64,000 nucleotides of DNA from the IMG/VR virus record IMGVR_UViG_3300025934_000016; one strand, given 5' to 3'. The stretch comes from an uncultured virus (IMG/VR IMGVR_UViG_3300025934_000016). Lineage: Duplodnaviria > Heunggongvirae > Uroviricota > Caudoviricetes. The notes below the pieces were generated by a model. The model was not told the origin of the DNA and searched no databases. It worked only from the letters and a program-made list of their open reading frames with translations. The position numbers and the translations under genes are program-made. Of this stretch, positions 17,354 through 48,114 are shown piece by piece (positions within the stretch are counted from its first letter, which is position 1; the number at the start of each line of letters is the position of its first letter).

Positions 17354-20300
17354 CTATTCGTTGACGGCCGCATCATTATTTTGCGGATCCTCGGCGCTTG
17401 GCGTTTTGCGCACTTGCTCGACTGCCTTCTTGGCGTAGTCGGCTATCCTGAAAGTGATCGCATCGATTCGAATTCGCTTCGCTTCTGGCGTGATGGTCGT
17501 GCTCGCCTTGATGAGATCCGCCTGTTTCCTCAATGTCGCCAAGTTACGTGCTACCCGTTCTAGGCTGGCCGCAGCGGCAATCGCATCCCGGTTGTCCTGT
17601 CGGTATTGCTTAGCTTCATCTAATTTACGCTCCCGTCTGAGCGCATCGTAGGTGTTCTTTTTCTCTTGCGCCTCGCCATAAGCCTTATAGAACCGCTCGA
17701 TGCTTTCCGGCTGTCCGGGAAACCTCGCCACGAAACCGCGCACCACCGGCACATCGGCAGCGCTCCCCTGCGGCTCTTCCGCCTTTTTGTTTTGGCTAAA
17801 GGGCTGGCTCGCTATATCGAGTCCGACTTGCCCCAACCCGCCAAAATACCCCCGAACCAAGTTCTCGATCTTTGCCGGCGAGTAGCCGATGGCTTGCCCT
17901 GCTGCCTTCGCGGCCTCCGACGTACCCGAGGTGTACTGTTTGGCCGGCGCAACGTCCTCTTTTCCTCGAGGGACAATCCGCCTCTCTCTGAAAAGGGAAT
18001 AGTTGGCCATGTTCTCGATCAACGGGATTGCTGCGGTCGGAATCGGGTTCGGAAGGCTGCTGAGCGCACTATTGAGGAGATCCTTCAGCGCTTGCGGGTC
18101 GTTTTTCTTGATCCACTCCAGTACGCGCTCCAGTGCGCTGCCAAACAAAAGGCCCGGCTCGAACGGCTTGGGGATCCGCCAAATGGTGTGGTCCTTGTTA
18201 AACACCGCCTTTTGTTCCGGACTCATGCCCTTCCACGTCTCTTTATCCATCGAGCCGCTTGGAACAATCCAGAAAAGATCTTTCTGCCAGCGCGGCAGCT
18301 CGTCATAGCGCGGGTCGTCCTGATTCATCAGATAAAGCAGCAGGGACGGTATGGTGATCGTGGCCAGAGCGCGAAGCAAAAAACGGCTGGGATGCTCCTT
18401 TGCGAACCGGCCCATTTTATCGAACCCCTGCATGTTGGCGTTCAAAAACGCTATCGCCTGATTCATCCCGCTCGCCTTGACGGCCGAACCCATGCGGGCG
18501 AAATCAAGCGTCACTTCGCGCGATGCCATCGCGCCCCTGAGAATGTTCTCCTTTGTCAATCCGCCTTCAGACGAAATCGCCCTGGAGAACTCCCCTACCC
18601 TTGTCGCCGCTTCGCCAAGCTCGGAGAGCGCACGGAGTGAGTCGATCGGGTGTATAATGACGGTCTTGGCGACCCCCCTCACCTGTCCGCTGTCGATCAC
18701 TTGCTTTAACGTTTTCTGCATCGAGCCGCGGTCGAGCGAGACCAGCATGGACCCCTGCCCGCCGCCCGCCTTCCAAGCGTTGTAGAGGTCATCTTTCTTG
18801 AGGATATGAAACAGGCCGCGGACAAAGTGACTGCCGGGGACATTGATGATTCCGTACTGGGAATAGAGCGCCGCAGAGAAAGCGTCGCGTACTGGGTTTC
18901 TGACGGCAAACTCCGGCGAGAGTACCGTGGCGCCAAGCCGCAGGGTTCGCGCTGGGATGCTCAGAATATTGATGAGCAAGTTCCGGGAGCTTCGATCGAG
19001 TCCCGCCATCGCCTCGTAAAGATCGGGGTGAACCTGATAGAGAACCGATTGGCCATCCTTCCAGCGCGACAGAATGTTATCCATCCCGGGCACTTTTGGG
19101 TTTGGCTTAAAGGCCGCCACGATCTCGGAGGGTATATCGACCTCGCCCTGAACGCCTAACTTCGCAAGGAGCTGGGCCACTTCCTCTTGATTGAGCTTTA
19201 CCGGGACTTTCCCGCGCGGCACCTTCTCGATGTATTTCCCCATTCCCTGACCGCTTTCGGCAAGCCTCACCAGCGCATCGGCCACGGCGTTGCGATCGGC
19301 CACGTTTATCATCGCGTAAGTGTTCTTGACGATCGACTCCAGCGGGTCGATGATCTCCCGTGAGCTACCCTTAAACTTTTTGACCGGCTTGCCGAGATTG
19401 GCGAACTTGTTGCCCCCCGCCATGCCGTCGGTGTGGCCTTCCATCAGGCGATAAAATGGGACGTACTCCTGGTTCAGTTCTTTGATTTTATCGGCGCTCT
19501 TTTTACTCAGAACGCCGGCCTTCTGCGTGTAGTCGAGTAGCGCATTGTTGTATTTCTGGAGCTCCTCGGCGGCTTTTACGAAGTGCGGCTTATCGTTATA
19601 GGCATCGAGAGTCGCCCGCACGTCATCGGCAGCAAGCCCGGTTTCTTTCCCCCGAGTCATCAGCTCAGCGGCGCGACGGGCGACGAGGTAGGCGCGGAGA
19701 TCATCGAGATTCTTTTGGAAAGGGCCAAGGATCTCGTTGAGCGGCTTCACGCCCTCAACCGGGCGGAAGGTGTCGTAATCGATCGGCCCCTCTTTCAAGA
19801 AGAGTTCGGCGCGCCCGGTCCAGCCGCGGAACAACCGCGCCAGAGTATAAGGGCTGTCGCCTGCATTTAGCGGTTCTCTGCCTTCTGACATGCGATTTTC
19901 GAATACCTTGATGTAATGGAGGTCGTCGAGCGCGCTCTTATACAGTCCGGCCAGCGTGATGGGCTTGGCGTCTTTCTCTCCGACTGATACCTGAGACAGG
20001 ACACGCGCCACGGGCGGCTGCTCCTTGTATCGTTTCCAGTCGGCGCGGGCTTTGCTCAGCGTTTCCCCGATATCGGGGTTTTTCGGTAAAAAGTCCTCTT
20101 CGAAGTATTTCAGGAACTGCGGCGCTTTGGTTTTGAGATGGTCGGGATTGGTGACATAGAACTGAATGAACTCCGCAACCCCTTCTTCCCTGTACCCGCC
20201 GTGCGGGTGGCGGCTGCCATAGAGATCTTTTCCGAGCTGGATCAGTTCTTTTTTCCCCGGCGCTCGTTTTGGGATGAACTTCTTTGACAGGAAGTGGCCA

Positions 20301-23300
20301 ATCTCGTGGGCGGCGACCTGCATGTCGTTTGCCTTCTTTAAACGGATGACTTCCTCTTTGACCTTGAAAAAACCACGAGCTTTCATCTGTGAGAAATTGC
20401 CGTGCCCTGAACGGATCGGGACCTGAAAGGCTTCCTGCAGGTCGCGGATGATATCGCCCCGGCGCTGAATCGGCTCCGCGTTCGCCCCGGCCGGCGGCTG
20501 GTAGTTTCGCTCCAGCGGGGAGACGGACTGCGGCACGTCTTTCGGACTCTTGCGGAGTTCGGGAAAGCCTTGGGTTTGCGGTTCGGGATACCCATGCGCC
20601 CCTCGCGTTCCAGTTCTTTGCCTTTTCGGCGCTTCTTTGACTGCTGGCTCGGTTTCTGGATCTCCTTCTTCTGTCGTGGCTTTCACGCCCTCAATCGGCT
20701 TTCCCGTGGGCTTGGGAATTGGAACTTTGAAAGGCCTGTGCGGTTCTCCGCCGATACTTGTCTTTATTCCTTTTGCCCGCTGTAAAACCTCACTGAGAGA
20801 TTCCTTCGTCCGTAGCACGGTAAAATCCCCGTCGCCGGGAATCTTGATTGTAACCGTAGCCTTATCGAGTCGTTCCAGTTTTGGACGGTTTTTCTTCTCC
20901 CATTTGTCTTGGGCGGTTCTGTTTGCCTTAATGAGCTTTTCCCTTTCTGCTGCCGGAAGCGAGGTGTTAAAGACCGTGTTGCTCGGTCGAGTGTTGTAGA
21001 TCGCCCTCGCCTGCGCTTGGATATCTGCCTTGGAAGGGGCGGCTTTAATCAACGCTTCGAGCCGTGAGACGATTTCACTTTTAAGCTCTTGCGCGGGCCG
21101 TTCCCCCTCGTGTTGGGCGGTTTTTTTGACTGCAGTTTTGATCTCCTCCACTGCAGGTGCGGCCTCCGGCTGGCCTTTGGCCTTGATGTCTTCTTTTTCG
21201 GCGGTTTGCGGCTTGCCCGCTTCAGATTTTTTTTCTCTTAGTTGCGCATTCTCGCGCTCTAGTCGCGCGATTTGGTCCTGGACGGACTGATCGGAGGGTT
21301 TGGATTCGGCCTGTTTCCCTTGTAACTCGTCAAAGATTTTCAGCCGTTCGGCCTTACCCTCTGGCGATAGGTATGGTGTTTTTTCCGTTATGGTTCGAAA
21401 TTCCTCAAGTCGCTGAGTGGGCAAATCTCTCAGCTTCGCTTCTGTTTCCGGTGTGATTGCATCATGCTGAACTTCGACGGGCGCATTGTTGCCCGAGGTG
21501 TCGACCACGAATGTCCTATTCCCACGTCTCTCAACCTTGTCTCTGCCAACCTGAAAGTCCGATATTTGATCCGGTCGAAGCAGTTTTTTTGAACGCGGGG
21601 GCGGCGGTGTTTCTTTGGACGGAGGCACTTGCTTGCGTAATTTGGCATTCTCCGCTTCAAGCTGTTTCGATCTTTCTTCGATGTTTGGGCTAGTTTTATC
21701 CTTCAGCCAGTAATCGGCTTTCTCTCGTAGTTGTTGATCGGATAAGCCTTTCAGGTGCTGGCGGAATTCGTCATCGCTTTTGGCGATACGCTCCGCCTGC
21801 TGTTGCTCCGCTGCTTCGCGTGTGGGTTGGCGTGTACCGACGCGCGTTCCCTGCTCGCTCAGATAAGAGTATCCGGCTACGCGCCGCTCACCTGTAGACT
21901 TGACGCCGAACGGCAGACCAAAACCGGAATACCATTTGCCATCGGTGCCTTTGAGTTCGACGCTCTCCACGACGGGCATCGGCTTGCGGCTTGCGGCTTT
22001 CACTATTTTCTCAATCAACTGTTCACGTTCGCCTGTCGGCTGTACCTCTTCCCCTTTCTCCCCCTTCATCGCCTTCACTCTTTCCGCCGCTTTCGCTTTG
22101 GCCGCTTCGCGGTCGGCCTGAGTGGGTTCCTCGACCTTCGGCGCTTGGGTCTCGGCCTTTGCAGTCGTAGGAGGAACACGCGCCGCCTCGTTAGCGGCGA
22201 ACGCTTGGGCCTCAACGAGAGTCATTGGTTTTGCGGGGTCGTTCAGGTGAGCGCGCGCCCCATTAACCGTAGCGACGACATCGAACTTGCCCCGCTCAGC
22301 GTCTGATTCAAGTATCCTTACGCTCGTGCCATCTGGCTTGACCGCTACTCCGGTGCGCCTGATTTGCTTGTCGAAATTTCTTAACCACTGCGGTGCGTTT
22401 ACCTTGTCCGCTTCGGTGAACCCGCCTGGAGGTGGCTTGCTGAGAAGCGCCGGCTTGGGTGCTTTTGCCTTCTCCACCCGCTCCGCCGCTTTGGCCTTCG
22501 CGGCTTCGCGGAGCCGTTTCTGCTCGGCTTCGGCGGCTGCAATCTTTTCCTCGATGCTCGGTTTAGCTTCGGCGGGCTTCGTCGGCTCCCGGATCGGGGC
22601 AGGCCCAGTCTTTTTTACCCGATCGTAAACCTCGCCGAATTCCTTTGCGCCAAGCTCGAGGGGGCTAGATGCACGTAATCCCCATTCCTGAACGTATCGG
22701 GAATAGGCACCTTGTCTGTCTACCCCTGCCGCAATCGCGCGTTCCGCTACTGCATAGGGATCAACTCTTGATGATGGTAATTCAGATGGGGGTGGAGGCT
22801 TAGCTTGGGCCCTCGTTGCCCGTTCTGCGTCAATCTCAGCTTGTGCCTTGGCGATGGCAGCAGGTTGATGTATCTCAGCCTCACGCTCTAAGTCGGATCT
22901 TTGGTCACGTAGTATTCGGCCTGCTTGGCTATCAACTCGAATTTCTGGGTTTCTATTCAGTTCAGATAATTGCTTTTGCAGTGCTTCATATTTGGCTGCA
23001 CTTGGTTCAGGTGAAGCGGGTGAAGTTGCTCCTGGTTCCGCAACCGGCTGCTCCAGCTTACCGAGCCGGTCTTTCGCCCCCTGCGCGCTGGCGACCTGCG
23101 CCTCGGGTTTCGCTTCTGGCGGCTTTTCTTCCACGGCCGGCGCTGGCGTTTCAGCAGGCTTCGCTTCCGCTGGTGGCGGATAGGCTTGCGGGCGAAACGG
23201 TAACTCTGCTGTCGGCTCCCCTTTGGCCAAAGGCTCAATTGGAGTATCTGCTTTGATCTCAGTAAACCCTGCCGGTGATAATTCACCGGGCGGTGATAAT

Positions 23301-24760
23301 TCACGTGATAATTCACCGGGAGTAGGCTTCGGCGCTGGCGCTTTGGCCTGTACCGCAGGTGGTACAGGTTCCTCGGGTCCTTCGAGCATCCCCCCGCTCG
23401 GTCCTGGCGGCTGTTCTCCACCCGGCTGCGTTGGCGCGGCGGCTGGTGCTTCGGGCCTTGCGCCCGCTTGTCGGCGCGCCCACTCATCGGCGTAGATCTT
23501 GTAGCGCGGGTCGAGGTTGGGATCGAGAATCTTGAGCGCGGCTTGGACGTGGGCGTCGCTTGACTGGCGCGCGACTCCGGCAACCGCGGACGCATCATCG
23601 GGTGAGAGGTCGCGTAGCGGCTCGGCGGAGGAGAGTTTCGCGGCCATTTCGGGATTGAGATTTCCCCAATCGCCAAACAGCCGGCCGCGGGCGTAGCGCA
23701 ACGCTTGGCCTAAAGGTACGTGCGGCGAACCCGGCGCGTTCATCATTGCGGTATTGATCGCTCCGGCTATATCCTGGCCGAGTGTTGGGTAAAATTCCGG
23801 CTTGATCGAGCTGATCGCCTCTGTTCCTGCTCTGAAAGCGTCAGAAACTATTTCCGGCATTGGGTTTACGATCGCGCCAAGATCGGGCGTCGGCTTTCCC
23901 GCCAAGTCGGTTGTCATTGGCGGCTTACCCTGTATCGCTTGCACAAGGCCCGGGAACGGCACCATCTTTTGTGCGGCTGGGGTATCGAGTGGTGGAGTCA
24001 GTGTGCTCACTAAGGCATTGCTGACTACATTCCCCGCCGACTTGGCGATCCCGGCAAGCCTATCCTTCCACCCCTTTGCCGCCTCGTTTTCCGCCCGCAC
24101 CCGAGAGGCTCCGGCAAGCGGCGGGACCGGCTCTGTGGCCGAGGGGATGTTGTTGGCGCCCATGTCCGGCATTTCGCCAACCTGAATCTGTGGCGATGGG
24201 GTTGGAATGAGCGATCTCAGTCGCTCTTTTATTCCGGCGAGGGGGTTGGGGTTTTGCGGGACTGGCGGATTGACTTTAGGTAGCGGGGGTGGAGGCAGTT
24301 GGCCGGGATCAAGGATGTTTCTTCCCGTAGTCGTGTCGGTGACGTTCCCCGTGTCATCGACCGCGTATTGCTGGTTTAGCTCTTTTGGCGCTCCTGGCGA
24401 TGGTTTATCCCACCAGCCTTGAGCGCGCCCCTTGCCGGGCCACAACTCCGATGCTGAGGGCAACTCGGGGACGCTCGGGAGATACGACTTGACCGTCTCC
24501 ATGGAGGGAATGGACGGCATGGACGGAAGCGCAGGAAGGGCGTTTTTGACCGTGCTGGCCGCGCTCTTGACCGCGCCCGTGGCGCGTTCCATTAATGAGG
24601 GTTCGGGCGGTTTGAGCGGTATGAATTCCTCGTCCGGGGCGAGCTCCCTAAATCCCTTCGGCGAGGAGCCCATAGGCCCGCCGTAGGTGGCTGGAATCTC
24701 CCCCTTGGCGAACGGGATAACCTCGTCGTCCGGGGCGAGCTCTCTGAAACCTTCAGGCAT
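17354..24760 (-). CDS. Large polyvalent / internal virion protein with zincin-like motif and C-terminal LPD38-like domain
   Basis: 2468 aa; AAHEIGH...EEGVAEF; DPRYDELPRWQKDLFWIVP...RIPKPFE; follows the ejection genes. Confidence 0.8.
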   Translation of the reverse strand: MPEGFRELAPDDEVIPFAKGEIPATYGGPMGSSPKGFRELAPDEEFIPLKPPEPSLMERATGAVKSAASTVKNALPALPSMPSIPSMETVKSYLPSVPELPSASELWPGKGRAQGWWDKPSPGAPKELNQQYAVDDTGNVTDTTTGRNILDPGQLPPPPLPKVNPPVPQNPNPLAGIKERLRSLIPTPSPQIQVGEMPDMGANNIPSATEPVPPLAGASRVRAENEAAKGWKDRLAGIAKSAGNVVSNALVSTLTPPLDTPAAQKMVPFPGLVQAIQGKPPMTTDLAGKPTPDLGAIVNPMPEIVSDAFRAGTEAISSIKPEFYPTLGQDIAGAINTAMMNAPGSPHVPLGQALRYARGRLFGDWGNLNPEMAAKLSSAEPLRDLSPDDASAVAGVARQSSDAHVQAALKILDPNLDPRYKIYADEWARRQAGARPEAPAAAPTQPGGEQPPGPSGGMLEGPEEPVPPAVQAKAPAPKPTPGELSRELSPPGELSPAGFTEIKADTPIEPLAKGEPTAELPFRPQAYPPPAEAKPAETPAPAVEEKPPEAKPEAQVASAQGAKDRLGKLEQPVAEPGATSPASPEPSAAKYEALQKQLSELNRNPEIRVDSQAGRILRDQRSDLEREAEIHQPAAIAKAQAEIDAERATRAQAKPPPPSELPSSRVDPYAVAERAIAAGVDRQGAYSRYVQEWGLRASSPLELGAKEFGEVYDRVKKTGPAPIREPTKPAEAKPSIEEKIAAAEAEQKRLREAAKAKAAERVEKAKAPKPALLSKPPPGGFTEADKVNAPQWLRNFDKQIRRTGVAVKPDGTSVRILESDAERGKFDVVATVNGARAHLNDPAKPMTLVEAQAFAANEAARVPPTTAKAETQAPKVEEPTQADREAAKAKAAERVKAMKGEKGEEVQPTGEREQLIEKIVKAASRKPMPVVESVELKGTDGKWYSGFGLPFGVKSTGERRVAGYSYLSEQGTRVGTRQPTREAAEQQQAERIAKSDDEFRQHLKGLSDQQLREKADYWLKDKTSPNIEERSKQLEAENAKLRKQVPPSKETPPPPRSKKLLRPDQISDFQVGRDKVERRGNRTFVVDTSGNNAPVEVQHDAITPETEAKLRDLPTQRLEEFRTITEKTPYLSPEGKAERLKIFDELQGKQAESKPSDQSVQDQIARLERENAQLREKKSEAGKPQTAEKEDIKAKGQPEAAPAVEEIKTAVKKTAQHEGERPAQELKSEIVSRLEALIKAAPSKADIQAQARAIYNTRPSNTVFNTSLPAAEREKLIKANRTAQDKWEKKNRPKLERLDKATVTIKIPGDGDFTVLRTKESLSEVLQRAKGIKTSIGGEPHRPFKVPIPKPTGKPIEGVKATTEEGDPETEPAVKEAPKRQRTGTRGAHGYPEPQTQGFPELRKSPKDVPQSVSPLERNYQPPAGANAEPIQRRGDIIRDLQEAFQVPIRSGHGNFSQMKARGFFKVKEEVIRLKKANDMQVAAHEIGHFLSKKFIPKRAPGKKELIQLGKDLYGSRHPHGGYREEGVAEFIQFYVTNPDHLKTKAPQFLKYFEEDFLPKNPDIGETLSKARADWKRYKEQPPVARVLSQVSVGEKDAKPITLAGLYKSALDDLHYIKVFENRMSEGREPLNAGDSPYTLARLFRGWTGRAELFLKEGPIDYDTFRPVEGVKPLNEILGPFQKNLDDLRAYLVARRAAELMTRGKETGLAADDVRATLDAYNDKPHFVKAAEELQKYNNALLDYTQKAGVLSKKSADKIKELNQEYVPFYRLMEGHTDGMAGGNKFANLGKPVKKFKGSSREIIDPLESIVKNTYAMINVADRNAVADALVRLAESGQGMGKYIEKVPRGKVPVKLNQEEVAQLLAKLGVQGEVDIPSEIVAAFKPNPKVPGMDNILSRWKDGQSVLYQVHPDLYEAMAGLDRSSRNLLINILSIPARTLRLGATVLSPEFAVRNPVRDAFSAALYSQYGIINVPGSHFVRGLFHILKKDDLYNAWKAGGGQGSMLVSLDRGSMQKTLKQVIDSGQVRGVAKTVIIHPIDSLRALSELGEAATRVGEFSRAISSEGGLTKENILRGAMASREVTLDFARMGSAVKASGMNQAIAFLNANMQGFDKMGRFAKEHPSRFLLRALATITIPSLLLYLMNQDDPRYDELPRWQKDLFWIVPSGSMDKETWKGMSPEQKAVFNKDHTIWRIPKPFEPGLLFGSALERVLEWIKKNDPQALKDLLNSALSSLPNPIPTAAIPLIENMANYSLFRERRIVPRGKEDVAPAKQYTSGTSEAAKAAGQAIGYSPAKIENLVRGYFGGLGQVGLDIASQPFSQNKKAEEPQGSAADVPVVRGFVARFPGQPESIERFYKAYGEAQEKKNTYDALRRERKLDEAKQYRQDNRDAIAAAASLERVARNLATLRKQADLIKASTTITPEAKRIRIDAITFRIADYAKKAVEQVRKTPSAEDPQNNDAAVNE

Positions 24761-33481: not shown

Positions 33482-33802
33482 TTATCTCCCCGTTACGAGA
33501 GCGATTATCCGGTCCGCCGACGCATCGCCGGTAAACTCGGTTCCCGCTGCCACCTGGGCCTGGAGCTTTAAGTTGGTCTTGTCAAAAATGTATTTCCGAT
33601 TGACCAGCGGGTACGGTAAGGCAATCAGCATCGAGTCAATTGCGTTTAGTTGGAAAAGCGCCGCGGTGAGGACGCTTCCGCCCCCGGCTATCGCGCCGTC
33701 GCCGTTGATGAGCACAAGGCGCTGTCTCACGCCCACCCCACCGGCTTTCATTCCGGGAAAGTCGCGTCTCAGAATCGTAATGTTGGCTGCTGTGATCGCC
33801 AT
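33482..33802 (-). CDS. Putative capsid decoration protein
   Basis: Paralog of 33817-34125; GAGGAGG RBS. Confidence 0.6.
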   Translation of the reverse strand: MAITAANITILRRDFPGMKAGGVGVRQRLVLINGDGAIAGGGSVLTAALFQLNAIDSMLIALPYPLVNRKYIFDKTNLKLQAQVAAGTEFTGDASADRIIALVTGR

Positions 33803-33816
33803 TTGCGGTCCTCCTC

Positions 33817-34125
33817 TTAGCGACCGTAAACGGTCAAAATGATTTGGTCCGCGGCACAACTGACCGCGCCGGCCACTTGCGCTCCGGTGGAGCCCACCTG
33901 CGCCATGATCTTGCTGTTGGCCTTGTCGAAGATATAAACGCGATCGACCAGCGGGAACGGTGCGCTAAAGAAAATGCCGTCGATGGCGTTTAGCAGAAAG
34001 TTCGCTGGCGTTACGGCAACTCCGCCCGTTGTGTAGGATGCCTCGCCCACCAGCAGACAAATTCTGATCCTGACGCCGCGCCGCGGTGCCAGTTTGCGGA
34101 TGAATGTGATTGCTCCGAGAGCCAT
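33817..34125 (-). CDS. Putative capsid decoration protein
   Basis: SYTTGG...YIFDKAN.K...V.GR; first same-strand gene after the capsid gene. Confidence 0.6.
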   Translation of the reverse strand: MALGAITFIRKLAPRRGVRIRICLLVGEASYTTGGVAVTPANFLLNAIDGIFFSAPFPLVDRVYIFDKANSKIMAQVGSTGAQVAGAVSCAADQIILTVYGR

Positions 34126-34207: not shown

Positions 34208-35053
34208 ATGCAAGCAAAAAATAAAGGGAAAAATCAGGGTAAAAATTGTTCCGTTGAGGGTTGTGGATATCCAGCGTTCTCTCGCGGATTTTGCGCTATG
34301 CACTATCAACGCAACCGCAAATACGGCGATCCTCTTGTGGTTAAAGCGGCCAAATCGAGGCATGGAAAAGGGAAGTACAGATATTGGAGAGGGAAGCATC
34401 TGCTTCCTCACCAGACCGCCTATCTCGATGCTCACGGCCCGATTCCGGTATGCAACTGCCAAGCGGGCGAACTTCTTCACGTTCACCACAAGGACGGCGA
34501 CCACTCCAACAACGCTCCCGACAACCTTGAGGCGCTCCACCCGACCGATCATGCCCATCTTCACAACCCGAAAGGTTCTTGCAAAGTTGAAGGTTGCAAC
34601 TCGAAAAGCCAAGACAAAGGACTTGTATCTTGGCCGGCCGACTCCGAAGATTTCTACTGTCCTGCTCACTACTACCAGCTTCAAAAATTCGGCAAGATCA
34701 CGAACGCAACTCTCAAATGGGGCGGACGAAAGAAGAAGTGGCTTGTGTGCTCGGTCGAAGGCTGCGAATCCGAAGGATATTGCCAGGGTTACTGCGTGCG
34801 GCACTACTCTCAAGTGCGTGAGCACGGAGAGATAAAACACATTGAGAAAATTGTAGGCGGAACGAAAAAATGGACCTCCTGCAAGGTTGAGGGCTGCGTA
34901 CCGACCTCGATGAAAGGCGCTTCTAATGGCTACTGCGATAGGCACTACCAACAGATACGGAAGTTTGGCCGCATCACGTCGGTAGCGCCCATCAGTAAAA
35001 CCGAATCGGGCCTCCATGGAGCTAATAAGCGGTGGAAGCCAGAAGGTTTTTAA
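34208..35053 (+). CDS. Free-standing HNH endonuclease with four Zn-finger repeats
   Basis: HVHHKDGDHSNNAPDNL; four C[SK]VEGC...C..HY units; antisense insertion. Confidence 0.85.
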   Translation: MQAKNKGKNQGKNCSVEGCGYPAFSRGFCAMHYQRNRKYGDPLVVKAAKSRHGKGKYRYWRGKHLLPHQTAYLDAHGPIPVCNCQAGELLHVHHKDGDHSNNAPDNLEALHPTDHAHLHNPKGSCKVEGCNSKSQDKGLVSWPADSEDFYCPAHYYQLQKFGKITNATLKWGGRKKKWLVCSVEGCESEGYCQGYCVRHYSQVREHGEIKHIEKIVGGTKKWTSCKVEGCVPTSMKGASNGYCDRHYQQIRKFGRITSVAPISKTESGLHGANKRWKPEGF

Positions 35054-35101: not shown

Positions 35102-36379
35102 CTATGGTACAAATGCACTTGCTCCTTTAAATACTGCATTGCAAGTGTCAAAATCTAGCTCTAAACCGCTCTCCGTCAACCACTCATCCTTCGTCGCGTC
35201 GTCGCCCGCGTTCTGGCGGTTTTCCAGGTAGTTGGTGTCCCGGTTCACGCCGTTGCCGGAGAGAATTCGGTCCGCCAAATACTCGGGGTCAACCACGATG
35301 CCCCAGGTGCGAAACGTCGCGTTTTTGCTGAACAAAGGATGCTGTCTGATTTGCAAAAATCCGTAAGGAGTACGATAGCGATCGAGCATCATCCCATACG
35401 TTTCCGACATGGGCGTCATCTGGATCTCGCCGTGTATCCTAGCGACTTTATTAATATTCGTAATCGCGGTGTTGCCCGCCAATAACAATTTTTCCGAGCT
35501 ACCGTCTTCGAACACGTCCTCCATGAACGCTTCCCATGAGTCGATATCGACCGCGCCCGCGAAGTCCTTCACGTTGGTCGTGACAAGGGAGATAAAACCC
35601 TTGGTGGTACGCTCCGGCTGCGCGCCCGAGGTGTCCTCAACGCCGGTGCCGAACACATAGGCCATCTCGCGCTCAATGGCGTGGATTTCCAGTGTCTCGC
35701 GCTGCCTCTCTTCCAGGTCCGAGCCGGTGCGGAGGTTCGTAGCCTTGGCGGTGTTGGTCAGGTGGAGCGATGTACGAAAGATCTGGGTGTAATTGTTGAT
35801 TACGCTCGGCTCGAATGTAATCGCTGTGGGCACTGCCGCGCCTTCCTGGTGATGGGACCCGACGATCAATAGCCCGTCGCCGTCGTTCATGGCCGCGGCC
35901 GAGGAACCCTTGCCGCGAAGCGCCGCAAATGAGTTAAAAGGCGTTGTAGGATCAGCGCTTACCCAGATTACTTCGAGGGTTCTTTCGTTTATAAGCGAAT
36001 GGCCTTTCTTGAGCGCTATGGCCGCGCCTGAACCCTGAGTCTCAATTGCCAGGTCGCCCGAAGTCTGCGAGCCGGATACGATAACCCGCTGAGTTGGCAG
36101 GTTTTTGGTGAAAATCTTAAATTCCGGGTCGTTGGTCGCTCTCACCTGTAGCTTGCTCATCAATGCGGTAAGCGAGAGCGGGCTATTGGGAAAGAGCAGG
36201 AGAATGAGCTCGCGGTAATTCTTGGGACGCTCATCGGAGGTCCAGGAGCCCGTACCGCGTAGCCCGAGCACTGTTCCCTTCTGTCCGAGATGGACAAACA
36301 GGACATAGATCAGGCCAAGGAGAGAGTAGATAAATGGGAGAGTTGCGATATCGTTAAGAAACTTTTTTGCCCCTTTCAT
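35102..36379 (-). CDS. Major capsid protein (DUF5309/SU10-like)
   Basis: NYTQIFR, YRTPYG.L....HPLF, DEWLTESGLE; follows scaffold. Confidence 0.85.
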   Translation of the reverse strand: MKGAKKFLNDIATLPFIYSLLGLIYVLFVHLGQKGTVLGLRGTGSWTSDERPKNYRELILLLFPNSPLSLTALMSKLQVRATNDPEFKIFTKNLPTQRVIVSGSQTSGDLAIETQGSGAAIALKKGHSLINERTLEVIWVSADPTTPFNSFAALRGKGSSAAAMNDGDGLLIVGSHHQEGAAVPTAITFEPSVINNYTQIFRTSLHLTNTAKATNLRTGSDLEERQRETLEIHAIEREMAYVFGTGVEDTSGAQPERTTKGFISLVTTNVKDFAGAVDIDSWEAFMEDVFEDGSSEKLLLAGNTAITNINKVARIHGEIQMTPMSETYGMMLDRYRTPYGFLQIRQHPLFSKNATFRTWGIVVDPEYLADRILSGNGVNRDTNYLENRQNAGDDATKDEWLTESGLELDFDTCNAVFKGASAFVP

Positions 36380-36422
36380 TGTTTTCCTCGTTACTAAAAC
36401 CGATTACCGAAATCATGGTCTT

Positions 36423-37406
36423 TTACTCCGGGATCTTGCCGCTGTTCGCTATCATGCGATCCAGTACGGACGGTTCGCCGGTCTCGCCGACGCCGGTCCT
36501 CGAGCCTGTCCCCTCACCCACCACTAGCCGGCGGTTCGCCGCTGCCTTTTTCTCCGTGGTGCTACTCTTGGCCGCTTCGATCACGCTGTCGCTATTAAAG
36601 GCGACCCACTGCTTAGCGAGGAAAGCCGGAGCCTTCTCGCCCGTGGTCTGGCCGATCGTTGCGCCGAGCTCCTCGACCAAATACTTGGTAAAGGCGTCGC
36701 GGATCTTTTGGTCTTTTAATCCCGCGTAGAGCTTTGCGTCCTTCTTGGCCAAAGCGTCGAGCTGCTGGTTGTAGGCGTTGGCGATGACCTGGGCCTGAAC
36801 CTTTTCCTTGGTGCCCGATGTCTCGGCAATCAGTTGCTCGAGCTTTGCCTGGTTGGAAAAGATCACATCGAAGGCGTAGCGCAGTTGCCCGACCAGGGTC
36901 TGAACGGCGCGCGGATACGCTTCCGGGAGGTCGCTTTCCAGGAGGTTCCCTTGAACCAAGTCGCTCACGATGGCCGTTGCCGCCTGATCGTAAGCCTTGG
37001 CAATCATCCCGTTGGTGATCTGGGGGACTTGCGGCGCTTCCTCTCGGGGTTGCGCTTGGGCCCTTTCCTTGTCCTGTAAATGCTTTTCCTGGAGGTGCTG
37101 ATACTTGCTGTGCGTGACGGCCAAGTCTTCGAGCAGTCCCGCCTCTTCGAGCTCTTTGGCGGTGTACTCGATGCCCCGGACCAGATAGCGTTTCTCTGCG
37201 GGCTTGGCCGGTGGCTGCGCCGGTTCTTCGCGGTCGGCGGGTAAGCGTGTTTCCCGTGAAACAACTTCGTCGGGCGTTTTCCCTGGCGCCTCTTCGCCGC
37301 GCGATACCTCTTTGGGCTCTGCGGGTTCGGAAGGTTCAGGGGAAGGGACGGCCGGTAACTGGGTATTGGTGAGCGATGCTAGAAGGTCTTTGTCGTTGTC
37401 TGCCAT
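36423..37406 (-). CDS. Capsid scaffolding protein
   Basis: Acidic/Pro-rich N-terminus, helical body, directly upstream of the capsid gene. Confidence 0.7.
   Translation of the reverse strand: MADNDKDLLASLTNTQLPAVPSPEPSEPAEPKEVSRGEEAPGKTPDEVVSRETRLPADREEPAQPPAKPAEKRYLVRGIEYTAKELEEAGLLEDLAVTHSKYQHLQEKHLQDKERAQAQPREEAPQVPQITNGMIAKAYDQAATAIVSDLVQGNLLESDLPEAYPRAVQTLVGQLRYAFDVIFSNQAKLEQLIAETSGTKEKVQAQVIANAYNQQLDALAKKDAKLYAGLKDQKIRDAFTKYLVEELGATIGQTTGEKAPAFLAKQWVAFNSDSVIEAAKSSTTEKKAAANRRLVVGEGTGSRTGVGETGEPSVLDRMIANSGKIPE
37248..37263. promoter_or_regulatory. parS-like palindrome
   Basis: TGTTTCCCGTGAAACA, 15/16 match to TGTTTCACGTGAAACA. Confidence 0.65.
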
Positions 37407-37575: not shown

Positions 37576-37785
37576 TCACGGATTGTCAGGCTTTTTTATT
37601 TCGTTCCGAAAGGTTGGAGTCGAGTAGCGAATAAAATCCTCAAGCTCATCAAAAAACCAGCGGCGTGAACCGCGAATCAGGTGTCCAGCGGGAAGTGAAC
37701 CTTGCTCCACGAGCCGGTAAACCGTTCTTGGAGTAACTTTCAAGAAATCGGCAACCTGTGAAATGTTTAACAGTCTGCCAATCAA
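37576..37785 (-). CDS. HTH_17 / excisionase-like DNA-binding protein
   Basis: LLNISQVADFLKVTPRTVYRLVEQGSLPA...GSRRW. Confidence 0.85.
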   Translation of the reverse strand: MIGRLLNISQVADFLKVTPRTVYRLVEQGSLPAGHLIRGSRRWFFDELEDFIRYSTPTFRNEIKKPDNP

Positions 37786-38357
37786 CTCGCCGTCCTCTTA
37801 AGTAATTTGAGTTGAGAAAATCGCTGGACATACTTTAGTGCTGCTTCGATAATGGTGGGACTGTCTCTCAGGAAACCTATCCCTTGATTGCACCTGTCAC
37901 AAAGAAGACCCCTCACCTTTTTATCAACGTGATCGTGGTCTACGCATAACACTTTGCCGGCTGGCGGCGGCGTTCCGCAAATGGCGCAGACACCATTCTG
38001 CCTACGCAACAAAATGTCATACCCATCGGGCGTCAAACCGCGCTTTCTTAAATTGCCCCGTCGATAATCCTCGTAGCCCAATTTGGCACGGTAGGTCTGA
38101 CTGTATTTACGACGTTTTTCCGAATTGTCGTTGTAACTCTGACGCATATATTCCCGCCGTTCTCCTACATTTGCCCAATACCACCGTTTGCCGGCCTCGT
38201 TACATTTTCCTGGGTTTGCTTTGTAATATCTGGCTTGAGCCTCACGGTGCTTGTCGAGGTTTGCCTGACGGTATCGCTTTTGTGACTCTTTATGCTTTTC
38301 TGGATTTGCCAGCCGCCACCGTCGTCGGCGCTCACGCGCTTTTTCTAAATCTTCCAC
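37782..38357 (-). CDS. Endonuclease VII-family homing endonuclease
   Basis: QNGVCAIC...VDHDH...VRGLLCDRCNQGIG; AN.xK helical repeats. Confidence 0.9.
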   Translation of the reverse strand: MEDLEKARERRRRWRLANPEKHKESQKRYRQANLDKHREAQARYYKANPGKCNEAGKRWYWANVGERREYMRQSYNDNSEKRRKYSQTYRAKLGYEDYRRGNLRKRGLTPDGYDILLRRQNGVCAICGTPPPAGKVLCVDHDHVDKKVRGLLCDRCNQGIGFLRDSPTIIEAALKYVQRFSQLKLLKRTAS

Positions 38358-38684
38358 TTAACCCCTCGTGGCGTAGTACGCCTCGATCTCGCGCTTTAAC
38401 CCCTCGTACTCAACTATGATATCGGTCGGTTCTTGAATTTCTAATAGAAACGCTCTTAATTTACCGAGGATATAAACGGCCTCGGTGGCGTCCTTCCCCT
38501 GATAGCTCGCGGTGGCCTGCTGGATTTTGATAAGCACCCGGTCGCGGACGTTTTGCCACTCCAGGGACTTCATGAATTCCACGGCGCGCAGATACGGCGC
38601 CTCGAGCTGGCGAAGCCTCACATTTTTGGCTTCGAGCGCTGCCTGCACCCGCTCGTAATCGTTATAGTCAGCCCTTGTCGCCAT
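38358..38684 (-). CDS. Small helical protein downstream of portal
   Basis: 108 aa, TAATG coupling. Confidence 0.7.
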   Translation of the reverse strand: MATRADYNDYERVQAALEAKNVRLRQLEAPYLRAVEFMKSLEWQNVRDRVLIKIQQATASYQGKDATEAVYILGKLRAFLLEIQEPTDIIVEYEGLKREIEAYYATRG

Positions 38685-41600
38685 TAAGCGGCTCCTTTCA
38701 GCGGGATCACGTTCCCCGCCTGTCTCATTTGCGCTACCTGCTCATCTGGCAACACCCTGACCGGCACTTGCGGCGTGCCGGGTGCGCCTGGCGGCATTTG
38801 TCCCGGCATCCCCATCCCGGGCGGTGGCATGAGAGGCTTATAGAACGAGTCGATGTTCCGGATGCCGAGCGGGGTGCGTGCAAACTCTTTGAACAACTCC
38901 TGCACGTCGGGCACTCGTCCCTGTGCGTCGGGCATCTGGAGCAGCATCGGGCTCTTGGAGAGCATCTCGCTAAGCGTTGTCCACGCCTGGATGGAGTCGC
39001 CCGGGTCTGCCGGCATGGGCCCGGAGCGCGGCACATAATCGACGTTTCCGGCGAGATCGTCGGGCGTCACCATCATAAATCCGTTCTGGTAGCGCGGGTC
39101 CCCGGTGCTCGCCATCTCGCGGGCAAACTCCCCGCTCACCCGAAACCACCCCTCCTTGTCGGTGAACTGCTGGCGGTTGGAAATCCAGCGCTGCGCCATC
39201 TTGAAGATCGCCATGGAGTCGATCAACTGGGCGTAAAAGCTCATTCTTGCGCTCGCGCCCATGTTGGCCTGATTGATCTCGCCGAGCGTGCGCTTATCCG
39301 AGGTCACTTGCGCCTGCATCGCATCGGAGGCGCCGGTCATTCTCATGCCCCAATCGAATAGCTGATTCACTTCGCCCAACATCCCGCTTGTCACATCGAC
39401 CTTCTGGAGTTGATGAATCACCGCGTCCATGCTGATCCGCCCTTCCTGAAGGAGCTTCTCGCCAAGAGCGGAGAGCCGGTAATGGCCCGCCGCGGTCGGG
39501 TTGAGAATGTCGAGCTCCTCGACCAGTGTTGGCGAGTAGAGCATCGAGTTATTTAAATGGCGCATCACATTGGCGACATGACTTTGACCGTGAATTCCGA
39601 CTTTGCCGTTACGCCGATAAATTGTCAGGTGGGTGGAATTCTCGATGCAGTAAACCTCGCCCTTGTAGTATTCGCGGCTGAACGACCACGGTTGAAGAGC
39701 AAAGGTTTTGGTGCGCTTGTTTATGCTGACGCAGTAGAGCGTCTTACCATTAGAAAGGGACTGGCCAAGCACGGTCTTGTATCCGAGCGATACTGCAATT
39801 GCTTGAATTCCGTCGGCTAACTCCTTGCTCGCCGAGTAGTACTGTGCATAGTTCTCGGTTTTTTTATGGCCGTCGCCGTCAATGGCCGCATCAAGGAACT
39901 TACCGCGCAGTTCTGGCCCCCAGGTGAACACGCAAGCCGGAACTCTCTTAGTTTGCGCACTGTCGCCACAATGTTCTTTCAGCCACTTAGCCAAGCGCCA
40001 GTTAGAGATCGTCCATGTAGACAGATCCGCCGTTGGTTGTGCGCGAGTAACGTGAAAGGGCATAGACTCCATCACCCCCGCAATTTTCTCCGCCGTTGAT
40101 TCCTTCGATTGACCGATAGTAATTCTGTGCGCCGAGGTAATTCCCTTTGCGCGATCACCGGACTGGTATTCTCTGATGTAACAATTCCCCTCGGAGACGA
40201 AGTACCCCAGGAATGGCGCTAGGGTCGAGTAGGGAATTGATGTGAGAGGAACGGTATGACTGCCACCATTCGCGTAGATCCTAGTCTCTTCTTCCAACAC
40301 AAGTTCGCCATTTTCTATCCCACCATTTTGACTTACCGCTCCCAAGAACTTACAGCGATGATCTATCGCAGCCGCGTCTTTGAAGCGGAATCTGTGGTTC
40401 CCCTCTGTACAAGTGCCAACGTACATTTGATGATTCGGCGTCACGAGCATATCCTGTTGATCTGTTTTCACGCGGACCATCTCACCGTCGAATGGATAAA
40501 CGAAGTGTTGCCGCGGCGCCTCAAACCAAAATTCATGTGTGTTGGGATCAACCGTGGCTACCTTGTCGCCATCGTCCAGGTCTTTTAGGAACTTGAATCC
40601 CGAGCTGGTAAGAATTTCTGTTTGCTCATCCGCGCAGTTGTAGAACCAATTCATAAACCTTTGTAATCCGTCGAGGTTCTCGATTGCCCCCGGATTAAAC
40701 GTGACGTGAGTGTCCACGTTGGACTCCGCACCGCTATACGGTAGCTCCTGGTGCTCGTACTCCGATGGGTGGGCGCGAATGACAATCGATTTATCGATCC
40801 AGGCAAACTGCCAGACCTCCGGGCGCTCTCCGTCGCCGAGCTTCCAGTCCTTCGGGATGAGCTTGATCGACATTACATCCTTGCAGTGAAACCCCTTGTC
40901 CTTGTCGTCCATGGAGCCTGTCATCTGGAGGTGCTTCAGCGAGCGGGCCACGGTGGTATCGCGCCGGCTGATCCCTCCCGCGCCGAGCTTGGAGACGTAC
41001 TCGATATTGAAGTAGGGTCCGCCGTTTTTCTGCGCCCCTTCGAGGAGCTCCAAGTAGGAGCAGAACGCCCGGTGTCCCGCGAACTCGGCCTTCTGGCCGT
41101 TGGAGATAGACACGCGGGGATCCACCCAGGTAAGGCGCGGGTCCACCGCCTCGACGCTATTGTGCTGTTTCAGTAAGTCCCAGGTCCGCTCCACCGGAGG
41201 CACTCCGAGAAAGTCCTGGAACGGGTTGGGCGGGCGCTTGGTGAACTTCCAGCCGTACTTGTCGGTCCAACAATCGTAAAACGTGCCCATGCCGTACTTC
41301 ACGGCGTCCTGGAGGATCGTGTAGAGCTGGACGAGAAAGTTGGTCTCGCGCTGATCGTACCCGATAACCGCCTGCATCACTTTGGCCGAGCGCATGTCCT
41401 CCGGGCCGCTGCCGCTGATCTCCAGGATCGGGTCGCGCTTGGTAAAGATCGCCAGGAGCTGCGTCAGGTAGGTCTGGAGGATCGCGTAGCTCATCGGCAC
41501 CACGATCGCCCGCTCCCAGGGCATTTCCTTCTTGTTCGATCTCGTGCCCTTGTCGGCGGTCCGGACGTTTCGCGCCAGGTCTATGTAAAGCGCACAACTC

Positions 41601-41845
41601 TCATCCACGCGATTCCAGTCGTCCCAGCGCGAAGCGATGTTTTTCTCGGCAAGTCGCTGTCGGGCGTTTAACCGCGAGAGGATCTCGGCATGAAAGCTAC
41701 TCCCGTACTTGAGCCGCGCCTCGATCGGTTGATCAATGACGCGGCCAGCAGATAGCGCGGGGTCCAGAGCGGGGTCGTCTTGTTGAGCGGGGTTGGGAGT
41801 TTGTAGGAGATTCGACAAAACCGTCGAATTCATTAGGTCGGCCAT
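38684..41845 (-). CDS. Portal protein containing an intein
   Basis: DAVKYGMG, TLGEINQ, P/M/Q-rich tail; ~700 aa after intein removal; upstream of scaffold and capsid. Confidence 0.8.
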   Translation of the reverse strand: MADLMNSTVLSNLLQTPNPAQQDDPALDPALSAGRVIDQPIEARLKYGSSFHAEILSRLNARQRLAEKNIASRWDDWNRVDESCALYIDLARNVRTADKGTRSNKKEMPWERAIVVPMSYAILQTYLTQLLAIFTKRDPILEISGSGPEDMRSAKVMQAVIGYDQRETNFLVQLYTILQDAVKYGMGTFYDCWTDKYGWKFTKRPPNPFQDFLGVPPVERTWDLLKQHNSVEAVDPRLTWVDPRVSISNGQKAEFAGHRAFCSYLELLEGAQKNGGPYFNIEYVSKLGAGGISRRDTTVARSLKHLQMTGSMDDKDKGFHCKDVMSIKLIPKDWKLGDGERPEVWQFAWIDKSIVIRAHPSEYEHQELPYSGAESNVDTHVTFNPGAIENLDGLQRFMNWFYNCADEQTEILTSSGFKFLKDLDDGDKVATVDPNTHEFWFEAPRQHFVYPFDGEMVRVKTDQQDMLVTPNHQMYVGTCTEGNHRFRFKDAAAIDHRCKFLGAVSQNGGIENGELVLEEETRIYANGGSHTVPLTSIPYSTLAPFLGYFVSEGNCYIREYQSGDRAKGITSAHRITIGQSKESTAEKIAGVMESMPFHVTRAQPTADLSTWTISNWRLAKWLKEHCGDSAQTKRVPACVFTWGPELRGKFLDAAIDGDGHKKTENYAQYYSASKELADGIQAIAVSLGYKTVLGQSLSNGKTLYCVSINKRTKTFALQPWSFSREYYKGEVYCIENSTHLTIYRRNGKVGIHGQSHVANVMRHLNNSMLYSPTLVEELDILNPTAAGHYRLSALGEKLLQEGRISMDAVIHQLQKVDVTSGMLGEVNQLFDWGMRMTGASDAMQAQVTSDKRTLGEINQANMGASARMSFYAQLIDSMAIFKMAQRWISNRQQFTDKEGWFRVSGEFAREMASTGDPRYQNGFMMVTPDDLAGNVDYVPRSGPMPADPGDSIQAWTTLSEMLSKSPMLLQMPDAQGRVPDVQELFKEFARTPLGIRNIDSFYKPLMPPPGMGMPGQMPPGAPGTPQVPVRVLPDEQVAQMRQAGNVIPLKGAA
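39584..40636 (-). mobile_element. LAGLIDADG intein in portal (351 aa)
   Basis: N|CADEQTEILT, VTPNH, FLGYFVSEG, FLDAAIDGDG, VYCIE, GIHGQ|S. Confidence 0.9.
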
Positions 41846-44703: not shown

Positions 44704-46008
44704 CTATCCGAGGATCACGTCGATCCGGTCCCCGCGCAACGTAATGATCTTTCTGTATCCAGGCGTGATGATAATTATCGCCGGCCCCTCTTGGCCGATA
44801 AGGCCCTGCTCGATCCGCGTAAGGGTTCTCGGTTGCCATTGACTGAGAGCCACCCAGAGCCAATCGGGGGGCATCCCGAACGGCGGGTTGTCGACTACCG
44901 CAGGCGGTTGAATGAGCGCGGCAATAAGATCGCCATTGACTACCGCCCAGTGCGGCTCTTTCCACCAGCGTATATCGGCGATGCGCCCCGGCGGCTGATC
45001 GACCGATTGGCCGGGAATCCCCGCTGAAAGCTGGTGTGGCGGAAAAACGAATGGTGCTGAAGGCAGGTACGAAACAAACGTCGAGCGCAAGTCCAGAGAG
45101 CGGCGTGGCGGTAAATCGACTGATTGTCCCGGTATGCCTGGCGATAACTTTCTTGCCTGTATCACCGGCGCTGTAGCCGGCCATTGATTCAATACCGCCC
45201 AGAACCAGCCCTGATTGAACGGCGTCTTCTCGACAACTGCCGCAACAAATTCCTGAACCAGCCTGTTGTAGCGAATCGGCGTCGGCAGGACGATCTGCCA
45301 CTGGCCGAGCGTGCTCCAGAGCCAGTCGGGCGCCATCCCAAACGGCGGGTTGTCGACGATAGCCCCAGCAAACTCCGGAATGCCTAGCGCTTGCTCGATC
45401 TTTGTAAGCGTTCTCGGTTGCCACTGACCAAGCGCGCCCATGGAGCGCGCGATTCCAAAGGGCGGATTGTCGGCCCCAGCCAGCGCGGCCTGCTGAATGT
45501 ATCTCGCGTATCGTTGAGCGCTGAGTGCTGAGTCCTGAGTGCTGAGATCGAAGCGCCAGCGCGGCGGCAAGCCAAACGGCGGGTTGTCGATCCCCTGAGT
45601 GAACTTGGCGTAGACGATTCGCACCGTCGGCGGCGGTTGCCATGAGATCAGCGCGGCGCGGAGTTCGGCGGCTCGATTGGGCGGATTGTCGACCGACTGC
45701 CCCGGTATCCCAGGCGATAATTCCCGTTGCTGAAAGGTCGGCGCGACTGTCTGCCACGAATTGATAACCGGAAATACCCAACTCTGATCGAACGGCGGAT
45801 TGGCAGCGAGCGCCTCTTGGATCAGCCGCGCACGCTGTTGTTGCGGCCATGGCTCTACTCTCCATGATGCCAGTACCGTTTCCGGTAGTGCGCGCCGAGG
45901 CGGCTGCGCAGTGGGTGGCGCGCTCGAGGGCGGGGTCAACTCCCGCGGCGCGAGAGGTTGAGCCCCACCTATGAACGGCTGCGGCGGTGGTGGTTGGTAA
46001 AGCGCCAA
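44704..46008 (-). CDS. Pro/Trp/Gln-rich repeat protein
   Basis: Repeated DNPPFG, GIPGQSVD, QWQ. Confidence 0.75.
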   Translation of the reverse strand: MALYQPPPPQPFIGGAQPLAPRELTPPSSAPPTAQPPRRALPETVLASWRVEPWPQQQRARLIQEALAANPPFDQSWVFPVINSWQTVAPTFQQRELSPGIPGQSVDNPPNRAAELRAALISWQPPPTVRIVYAKFTQGIDNPPFGLPPRWRFDLSTQDSALSAQRYARYIQQAALAGADNPPFGIARSMGALGQWQPRTLTKIEQALGIPEFAGAIVDNPPFGMAPDWLWSTLGQWQIVLPTPIRYNRLVQEFVAAVVEKTPFNQGWFWAVLNQWPATAPVIQARKLSPGIPGQSVDLPPRRSLDLRSTFVSYLPSAPFVFPPHQLSAGIPGQSVDQPPGRIADIRWWKEPHWAVVNGDLIAALIQPPAVVDNPPFGMPPDWLWVALSQWQPRTLTRIEQGLIGQEGPAIIIITPGYRKIITLRGDRIDVILG

Positions 46009-46743: not shown

Positions 46744-48114
46744 TTAATTACTGCAATCCGTTCCCGTGCTGCTCGCATAAAGCCGACCCGTCGAAGTGTC
46801 CACACAAAGGACTTTCTTGCCGCCTGCCGCCCCGGTGGTTTTGAAATTGTCGATGATCATTCTCTCGCTTGAGTTGTAAATCGGCTGGCTGGTTCCAGCG
46901 CCAGTCATGGTGCCTATTCCATCCACAAATCTTTCGTCACAGGTACTAAATGTACCATCGGTACAGCGGATATTCCCGTGAGACATAAATGAAGTGACAG
47001 CACTTGAACGGAACCCCGGCCCCATGTTGTCGGTCGTCGCACCCGTATTGCTCCTAATCACGTCGTTGGATACGTCAGCAATGCGGTTGTTGAGTAGAAC
47101 GATGCCCGTAAGGCCCTCAGTTGCAAAAAAATTACTGCCAGGCGCAGTGATGTATCCGCCGATTTCACTCGATTCAATCGTTAAGCTGCTTCCAAAGCTG
47201 CCTCCCGATCTGATAACTTCAGTGCTGCCAGTCTTGTGAGCCAATACGCCTTTGACGAACACATTGGTTCCATTCATATCTAAAAAATAGGTGCCGATAC
47301 TTTCAGAGCGAAAATTCATGACCGTTGATGTGCCACCGTTGGTAAATAGAAAATCGGTGCCGTTGGCTGATGCGCTGCCTCCCATGACATAACAACCGGC
47401 TGTGGCGCAGTTTATTCCAGTCGTATTTTCGGCCATCATCAACTGAATGAAAACGAAGTTCAGACCATTGAAATTGCCGTTGTAAAAACCATCGGTGCAG
47501 TTACCCAGGAACAAATTTATAAACGTCATCTCGCTGGACGTAGCAGTTCCGCCTACACCTTGTGTATTTATACATTTGGAAAAGCTGTCCACGGCGACCA
47601 GCTCGAATATGGATTGCCCAGTCTGAGTGCCGCTACCCGAACCACTAAATACTAATCCTTGCCGACTTCCCTTCGTTTGAGCATTGTGGAACGCCATGCC
47701 TTTCATCGAGAAGCCCTTGTTGCCCCAAAAGGTGATACAGTCAGAGGTACTCGATGCGATGTCGCAGTTGATGACGCTCTGCACGTAGCCATCACCCTGG
47801 ATATTAAAATGGTTTTGCCCGCCGCCAGCAAAAGTGTCGCTGGGGAACATTATCGGCGAGGTAACGCGGTAAACACCTAAAGGAAAATATAAAGTGCCCT
47901 GGGCGGTTGCGGCGGCGTCGGCGGCAGCTTGAATTGCCGCAGCGTCATCGGTCGAACCGTCACCCTTCGCGTTATAAGGAGGGCATTTAACATTTACCAC
48001 CGTAACGACATCGGATAGCTGTGGAACGGTGACGCACGAAGTGGTCGCCGCGCCGTGCAAGTCGGCTGTCGGCAAGAGGAACAGCAGCCATAGTACAAGC
48101 CAGAGTTTTTTCAT
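46744..48114 (-). CDS. Signal-peptide pectate-lyase-3-like beta-helix (tailspike/depolymerase-like)
   Basis: MKKLWLVLWLLFLLPTADLHG; YNAKGDGSTDDAAAIQAA...LYFPLGVY. Confidence 0.85.
   Translation of the reverse strand: MKKLWLVLWLLFLLPTADLHGAATTSCVTVPQLSDVVTVVNVKCPPYNAKGDGSTDDAAAIQAAADAAATAQGTLYFPLGVYRVTSPIMFPSDTFAGGGQNHFNIQGDGYVQSVINCDIASSTSDCITFWGNKGFSMKGMAFHNAQTKGSRQGLVFSGSGSGTQTGQSIFELVAVDSFSKCINTQGVGGTATSSEMTFINLFLGNCTDGFYNGNFNGLNFVFIQLMMAENTTGINCATAGCYVMGGSASANGTDFLFTNGGTSTVMNFRSESIGTYFLDMNGTNVFVKGVLAHKTGSTEVIRSGGSFGSSLTIESSEIGGYITAPGSNFFATEGLTGIVLLNNRIADVSNDVIRSNTGATTDNMGPGFRSSAVTSFMSHGNIRCTDGTFSTCDERFVDGIGTMTGAGTSQPIYNSSERMIIDNFKTTGAAGGKKVLCVDTSTGRLYASSTGTDCSN

Follow-up and report, generated by a model that had tools for sequence, protein, structure and literature searches.

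Within the window, the 64,000-nucleotide stretch of an uncultured Caudoviricetes virus (IMG/VR IMGVR_UViG_3300025934_000016) that was analysed here, the minus-strand open reading frame (ORF) at 35102-36379 encodes a protein of 425 residues that opens with a 35-residue leader. The features of this locus are given below.

36385..36389, minus strand: Shine-Dalgarno (SD) sequence GAGGA, 5 nt ahead of the leader ATG, seen in the sequence and conserved as GAGG/GGAGG in relatives
36275..36379, minus strand: leader M1-G35, 35 codons, absent from the capsid protein 9IN6 and delimited by homologue comparison
36344..36376, minus strand: basic amphipathic first helix, residues 2-12 (AlphaFold helix 2-11; hydrophobic moment 0.66, family median 0.50)
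36287..36340, minus strand: hydrophobic, transmembrane-like core, residues 14-31 (hydropathy; AlphaFold helix 14-33)
36272..36289, minus strand: end motif L31-G-Q-K-G35 plus T36, with the putative cut at G35/T36 (Gly at -1 in 53/55 leaders, aligned with Met1 of leaderless relatives)
36269..36271, minus strand: GTG codon of V37, which is not conserved as a second start (GTC/GTT in 8/15 loci)
35102..36274, minus strand: predicted mature major capsid protein, residues 36-425, HK97 fold, SU10_MCP family (PF17236, phrog_1328, 9IN6)
36423..37406, minus strand: probable scaffold gene, by position, without a hydrophobic leader
38684-41845, minus strand: portal gene (Pfam and PHROGs), upstream of the capsid gene
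59108-61795, minus strand: large terminase gene (Pfam and PHROGs), upstream of the capsid gene
33817..34125, minus strand: small gene of a beta-sandwich family that follows the capsid gene and is decoration-like in its position only; no leader here, but a leader in some relatives
33482..33802, minus strand: the other paralogue of this small family, without a leader

The ORF encodes a major capsid protein of the SU10 family with an HK97-type fold, as an earlier note on this DNA had claimed from the letters alone. It matched PF17236 (SU10_MCP) over residues 48-419 (E 1.2e-36; 127.1 bits against a cut-off of 24.1) and phrog_1328, major head protein, in PHROGs. The capsid protein of Vibrio phage VP1 (9IN6) was retrieved both by sequence (E 1.2e-53), with its residue 2 paired with query residue 35, and by fold (Foldseek, E 5.4e-38), where the crAss001 and SU10 capsids ranked next; the AlphaFold model of the capsid precursor had a mean pLDDT of 81. 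The VP1 protein shares family, fold, and first motif with the query when aligned from query residue 35, but has no leader. The capsid gene sits in a head module with portal, terminase, and scaffold genes, the scaffold being assigned by position only (Pfam and PHROGs gave no match for 36423..37406), and the gene set suggests a short-tailed phage.

Several other genes were observed in the window. The portal and the large terminase each carry a LAGLIDADG-like insert, probably an intein, and the portal of near relatives is shorter. An HNH endonuclease gene (34208-35053, plus strand) separates the capsid gene from the two small genes and runs in the opposite direction, and more HNH or endonuclease VII genes are found at 37782-38357, 55164-55631, and 61762-62253. 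The minus strand also encodes a Trp/Pro-rich protein of 434 residues with repeats around an NPPF motif and no family match in Pfam or PHROGs (44704-46008), fibronectin type III and pectate-lyase-like proteins with signal-peptide-like starts among the virion genes (8965-9627 and 46744-48114), and an LPD38-domain protein of 2,468 residues that is probably of the ejected polyvalent kind (17354-24760).

The core of the leader has a Kyte-Doolittle (KD) hydrophobicity of 2.22 (19 residues) and a Fauchere-Pliska mean of 1.25. When the 105 leader nucleotides were shuffled 20,000 times, 3,328 shuffles were open at all and 15 yielded an open frame that was equally hydrophobic. The 55 leaders found among homologues were of two types: 46 of type A, ending L-[G/N/S]-[Q/E/N]-x-G, and nine of type B, hydrophobic right up to the Gly. 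Of the type A leaders, 44 are complete; in these, a basic and amphipathic first helix (moment 0.50) was seen, and the cores had a median hydrophobicity (H) of 1.22, a moment of 0.18, and an uncharged run of 18-28 residues. A core that is hydrophobic with little moment fits a membrane segment, and the hydropathy of query residues 14-31 was likewise membrane-like, in agreement with the transmembrane-like leader behind a well-spaced GAGGA that had been described earlier. The flanks of the type A cores were basic, with at least two K/R in the first 10 residues (44/44) and K/R ahead of the motif (34/44), and the membrane orientation is therefore ambiguous. Since the capsid body must remain cytoplasmic, an N-out span or a re-entrant helix would be needed, whereas a plain N-in span would export the body. 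Summed insertion energies were marginal for many leaders, and the junction (residues 32-46) was modelled by AlphaFold mostly at pLDDT <50. A Pfam scan of six leader pieces at E up to 10 returned one weak irrelevant match and no signal-peptide family, and the best ESM Atlas score for residues 1-48 was 0.82, to be read as leads only.

Alignment of the N-termini of homologous capsid proteins, a check that the earlier note had suggested, was performed with the best 120 of 500 matches plus the query (121 proteins), 117 of which have at least 375 residues. Among these 117, the leader, which is under purifying selection (see below), was present in 55 (two of them partial) and missing in 61 (two of which look mis-called), and one protein was truncated. 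The residue in place of Met1 of the leaderless proteins was Gly in 53 of the 55 leaders and Ala in the remaining two, compared to 5.8% Gly elsewhere in the leaders, and the nine type B leaders, although unrelated to type A, end in the same register. The leaderless proteins started M-[P/A/S]-x-x-G in 53 of 61 cases. Initiator Met is removed from M-[P/A/S] starts, so that the short form after Met removal and the long form, if cut behind G35, would share the same N-terminus. In 9IN6, 398 of 399 residues were modelled, so in the mature shell the chain is ordered from its start. The register thus indicated that leader cleavage at G35/T36 would restore the usual N-terminus of the family, in line with the cleavage proposed before. 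The capsid part does follow the leader, as had been stated for the VLGLRG stretch; that statement left out T36, and it is here, not at V37, that the capsid-equivalent sequence starts. None of the 24 phage records that matched aligned ahead of residue 36, and one of 138 full-length distant representatives had a hydrophobic N-terminus.

At the DNA level, 15 leader loci including the window were compared, 12 of which are distinct in the leader, and GAGG or GGAGG was seen by eye ahead of the first ATG in 12 of the 15. The earlier note had raised the possibility of dual starts, with a poorly spaced ribosome-binding site at the internal GTG of V37. The spacing is indeed poor (AAGGGA just 3 nt upstream), and a conserved second start was ruled out: the V37 codon is GTC or GTT in 8/15 loci (7/12 distinct), among them L085, which has a 98.7% identical capsid body and lacks any further in-frame start codon over the stretch concerned. 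In the present genome alone, some leaky initiation at the GTG may occur. Among the 10 pairs of five same-length leaders, dN/dS was 0.11-0.42 in eight, the other two being saturated at synonymous sites, compared to 0.04-0.08 for the capsid body. The retained SD sequence, the unconserved internal GTG, and the purifying selection therefore show that the long form is the selected, translated product. Contigs from two metatranscriptome runs (X3, 36125-36441; X1, 36139-36371) matched most or all of the leader with no differences; they carry no information on strand or level and may be DNA.

As judged from the alignments, the leader is conserved in character, not in sequence. On a tree of 138 capsid bodies, its distribution requires at least seven changes. 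In an IQ-TREE subset of 30 rows, picked after seeing the 138-body tree, five changes were required and a single leader clade was rejected (AU p 0.0005). The leaderless proteins P0044 and P0304 fall within the leader clade, with bodies 89-90% identical to that of leader-bearing P0037, and P0013, which has a type B leader and 88% overall identity to the query, sits beside the query in the tree. This repeated gain, loss, and swap at close range suggests that the leader is an optional, exchangeable add-on. A leader-profile search for other tagged proteins, a weak test with 8,000 candidates scored, gave 18 matches, all to capsid proteins or fragments. In a pattern scan of SD-led ORFs, 7/151 matched in the leader loci, all of them capsid genes, against 5/1,761 chance-like matches elsewhere; the scan missed the small-gene leader of L092 and is thus insensitive. 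A genome scan returned no leader-bearing locus.

The small gene downstream of the capsid gene carries a leader of its own in some relatives. The leaders of its homologues P0305, P0306, and P0307 end ...DESG, ...NESG, and ...SQRG, respectively, where P0308 and P0310-P0312 have Met1; the contig of the leaderless P0308 is as long as that of P0046, which bears a leader. Where the gene was visible, it was leader-bearing in 2/7 loci with a leader on the capsid (L092:11387-11800 and L093:3665-4036, the L093 leader ending in Ala) and in 0/8 leaderless-capsid loci, which are small numbers. The fold of P0305 gave no Foldseek match at E 0.001 (best Z 6.2), and a decoration role is unconfirmed. The paralogue pair at 33482-34125 is replaced by a single 45% identical gene in L083 and L085, in which the capsid bodies are 99% identical. 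In five loci with leaderless capsids (L003, L004, L007, L099, and L103), a gene for an 11-span membrane protein and proteins with hydrophobic N-termini lie inside the virion module, ~2.5-3.8 kb after the capsid gene.

The leader may well be a membrane-tethering propeptide cleaved by a host enzyme, a reading that we put at slightly better than even. The capsid precursor would be synthesised from the first ATG, translation of the leader itself being established, and the hydrophobic core would tether new subunits to the cytoplasmic membrane from the inside, the body staying in the cytoplasm. A membrane-associated protease, most likely the host's, would then cut G35/T36, as implied by the register, and the freed subunit, with a normal N-terminus, would by analogy assemble with scaffold and portal like its leaderless relatives do. 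The tether step would be an optional holding, concentrating, or timing device and not a structural need. The Gly/Met1 register in the capsid gene and in a second gene, the hydrophobic, non-amphipathic core in a leader under purifying selection, and the low-pLDDT junction all argue for this reading. That the enzyme would be the host's is suggested by the window, in which no peptidase family was matched in Pfam (41 and 70 ORFs), PHROGs (28 ORFs), or NCBIfam (20 ORFs), and no polytopic coding-strand ORF (at least three hydrophobic spans) was found. On the other hand, the basic residues on both core flanks make the orientation ambiguous, close sisters do without the leader, none of the known peptidase rules fits in full, with a modest prepilin score for type A (see below), and the longest contig with this protein is 71,392 bases, so that ~7 kb outside the window has room for a protease gene. 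The existence of leaderless sisters at 89% identity would fit release before or during assembly better than the membrane-anchored prohead assembly envisaged in the earlier note. The link to exported appendage proteins that the note suggested found no support, as L007 and L099, both leaderless, have proteins with hydrophobic N-termini in the virion region as well.

The register evidence is independent of the membrane, and the leader could alternatively be cut at G35/T36 as a hydrophobic propeptide that binds the scaffold or a chaperone, or bundles in the procapsid, with a soluble protease of host or phage removing it. The marginal summed insertion energies of many leaders are consistent with this, as is phage 80alpha, in which, according to the accessible text, a short N-terminal leader on the HK97-fold capsid protein is cut by host Prp and is dispensable on that protein (PMC5744158). 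We nevertheless regard it as unlikely, given that hydrophobicity is kept while sequence is not, and that unrelated leaders are swapped within a tight clade, as would be expected of membrane or signal segments. Furthermore, the scaffold lacks a matching leader in every locus shown, and the sole soluble metallopeptidase-like ORF (54167-54883, minus strand) was not found by tblastn in 146 loci, including the leader-bearing L144, which spans the syntenic interval. This ORF encodes a 238-residue protein, possibly a metallopeptidase (HExxE-type motif by eye), of a common unnamed bacterial family in the ESM Atlas, and received no name from NCBIfam.

With no protease found in the window, the leader could also stay in place for good and fasten proheads or virions to the membrane or hold lipid inside the shell, with the Gly as a hinge. 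This seems quite improbable to us; a hinge would work without the precise match to Met1 that is seen in two genes and in several leaders unrelated to one another, and without Q/E/N being favoured at -3, and the 89-90% identity of the P0044 and P0304 bodies to that of P0037 suggests that the shell has not been rebuilt around a retained helix.

Rhomboid substrate motifs call for a hydrophobic P4, a small P1, and a hydrophobic P2' residue. This pattern was present in 7/9 type B leaders, and the ~7 kb of genome beyond the window could encode a phage membrane protease, for example a rhomboid, that removes the leader. The pattern was, however, found in 0/46 type A leaders, the query included, and the layout is reversed: in the accessible text of PMC2941825, the motif with its P4/P1/P2' positions sits at the N-terminal end of the following transmembrane helix. 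A rhomboid substrate reading was thus rejected for type A. Neither the window nor the leader loci examined showed a polytopic ORF close to the terminase, and removal by a phage membrane protease appears very unlikely.

Hardly credible, finally, is that the extension acts mainly via RNA or translation (a hairpin, a second start) with the peptide incidental: a 9-pair stem is predicted over the AUG in six near relatives (36330-36379, minus strand, the start codon region pairing with codons 14-17) and the leader SD is weak for a capsid gene (-5.9 kcal/mol vs -10.9 and -12.0 for the two following genes), but fold z-scores of -1.6 to +1.5 in six leaders and a covariation term of 0 for the stem revealed no strong conserved mRNA structure in the leader, the internal start is unconserved, the leader amino acids are under purifying selection, and a capsid protein with an uncut leader would remain to be explained.

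For the proposed membrane-tethered precursor cut by a host enzyme, the junction was compared with known peptidase rules. Signal peptidase I requires a small neutral residue at -3, which was present in 2/44 type A leaders (-3 was Q in 25, E in 8, and N in 6), and signal peptidase II, acting on lipoproteins, requires Cys at +1, which was present in 0/44; both sites were rejected. An L27-like leader of the Prp type was also rejected, the junction being G/T, G/V, or G/A, not F/A, and the scaffold being without a leader. Prepilin peptidases PilD/TadV act on the cytoplasmic side, cutting behind an invariant Gly, and in the class III signal ~21 hydrophobic residues and a Glu at +5, dispensable for processing, follow this Gly (accessible text of PMC4471445). 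The capsid leaders share with this signal the Gly at the leader end and Q/E/N at -3. They differ in that the hydrophobic tract precedes the Gly, positions +6 to +21 are polar (KD -1.9 vs 2.93 in prepilins selected at >=1.8), -5 is Leu and not K/R, -4 is mostly Gly, and Glu at +5 was found in 0/44. With the tract and Glu+5 missing after the Gly, a class III signal proper was rejected, and the leader may work like one turned round.

We also scored the sites with a prepilin matrix for positions -5 to -2, built from 74 Flp-like and 49 type IVa-like sites (123) from two bacterial phyla, to which the host need not belong. With this reservation on the phyla, the median scores were -1.2 for type A capsid sites, -5.9 for other Gly (95th percentile 1.07), and 6.2, in-sample, for prepilins, and the type A site ranked first among the Gly of its own protein in 3/44 cases. 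The query scored 1.9 and ranked second among its Gly (first with the type IVa matrix alone), the small-gene leaders P0305-P0307 scored 3.5-5.7 and were top among their own Gly, and type B leaders scored -9 to -16. An enzyme that cut both types would recognise hardly anything except a small residue next to a membrane segment, and this speaks against a strict prepilin reading. Among named enzymes, a prepilin-type (GxGD) peptidase is the foremost candidate, and a tentative one. A more specific and rather doubtful version is an inverted class III signal, in which the anchor would precede the Gly and stay in the membrane, the host prepilin peptidase would free the capsid protein to the cytoplasm, and the tag would be portable among the capsid and neighbouring virion genes.

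On the usual view, soluble subunits assemble into the heads of tailed phages, T4 being the known membrane-linked exception. T4 proheads anchor to the membrane through a connector-binding protein, and prohead membrane association had not been shown for other phages according to the accessible text of a 2011 review (PMC3185693). The likeness to T4 is a membrane step in virion assembly, here a proposed one, and the difference is that the T4 anchor is not the capsid protein. The leader of the f1 coat protein is cut by a cellular peptidase (PMC3185693, accessible text); the coat protein of filamentous phages is itself a membrane helix and does not have the HK97 fold. With 80alpha, the common trait is a host-cut N-terminal leader on an HK97-fold capsid protein, the cleavage here being read from the register. 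The 80alpha leader has 13-14 residues, is L27-like, cut at F/A, and common to the scaffold, and the word "membrane" is absent from the accessible main text of PMC5744158, whereas the present phage has 35 residues with a transmembrane-like core, Gly at -1, and a scaffold without a leader. A search by title and abstract start, in literature largely without subscription papers or supplements, found no published description of such a capsid leader, and the accessible text of PMC10172136 and PMC13730344 mentions none.

A capsid protein of a known family appears to carry a propeptide of a new kind. This case contributes a precise Gly/Met1 register found in two genes, the gain, loss, and swap of the leader at close range, and a window in which no phage protease was found. 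On sequence evidence, the leader suggests an undescribed membrane step in phage head building. The clade is a good test system, with the predicted cut fixed to one bond and with leaderless and leader-swapped alleles at 88-90% identity. If the reading is true, head assembly would gain a new step, in which a host enzyme cuts a capsid precursor tethered to the membrane. A prepilin peptidase as the enzyme would mean a new substrate geometry for that enzyme family, and with an inverted class III signal, head assembly would be coupled to the state of pilus processing in the host.
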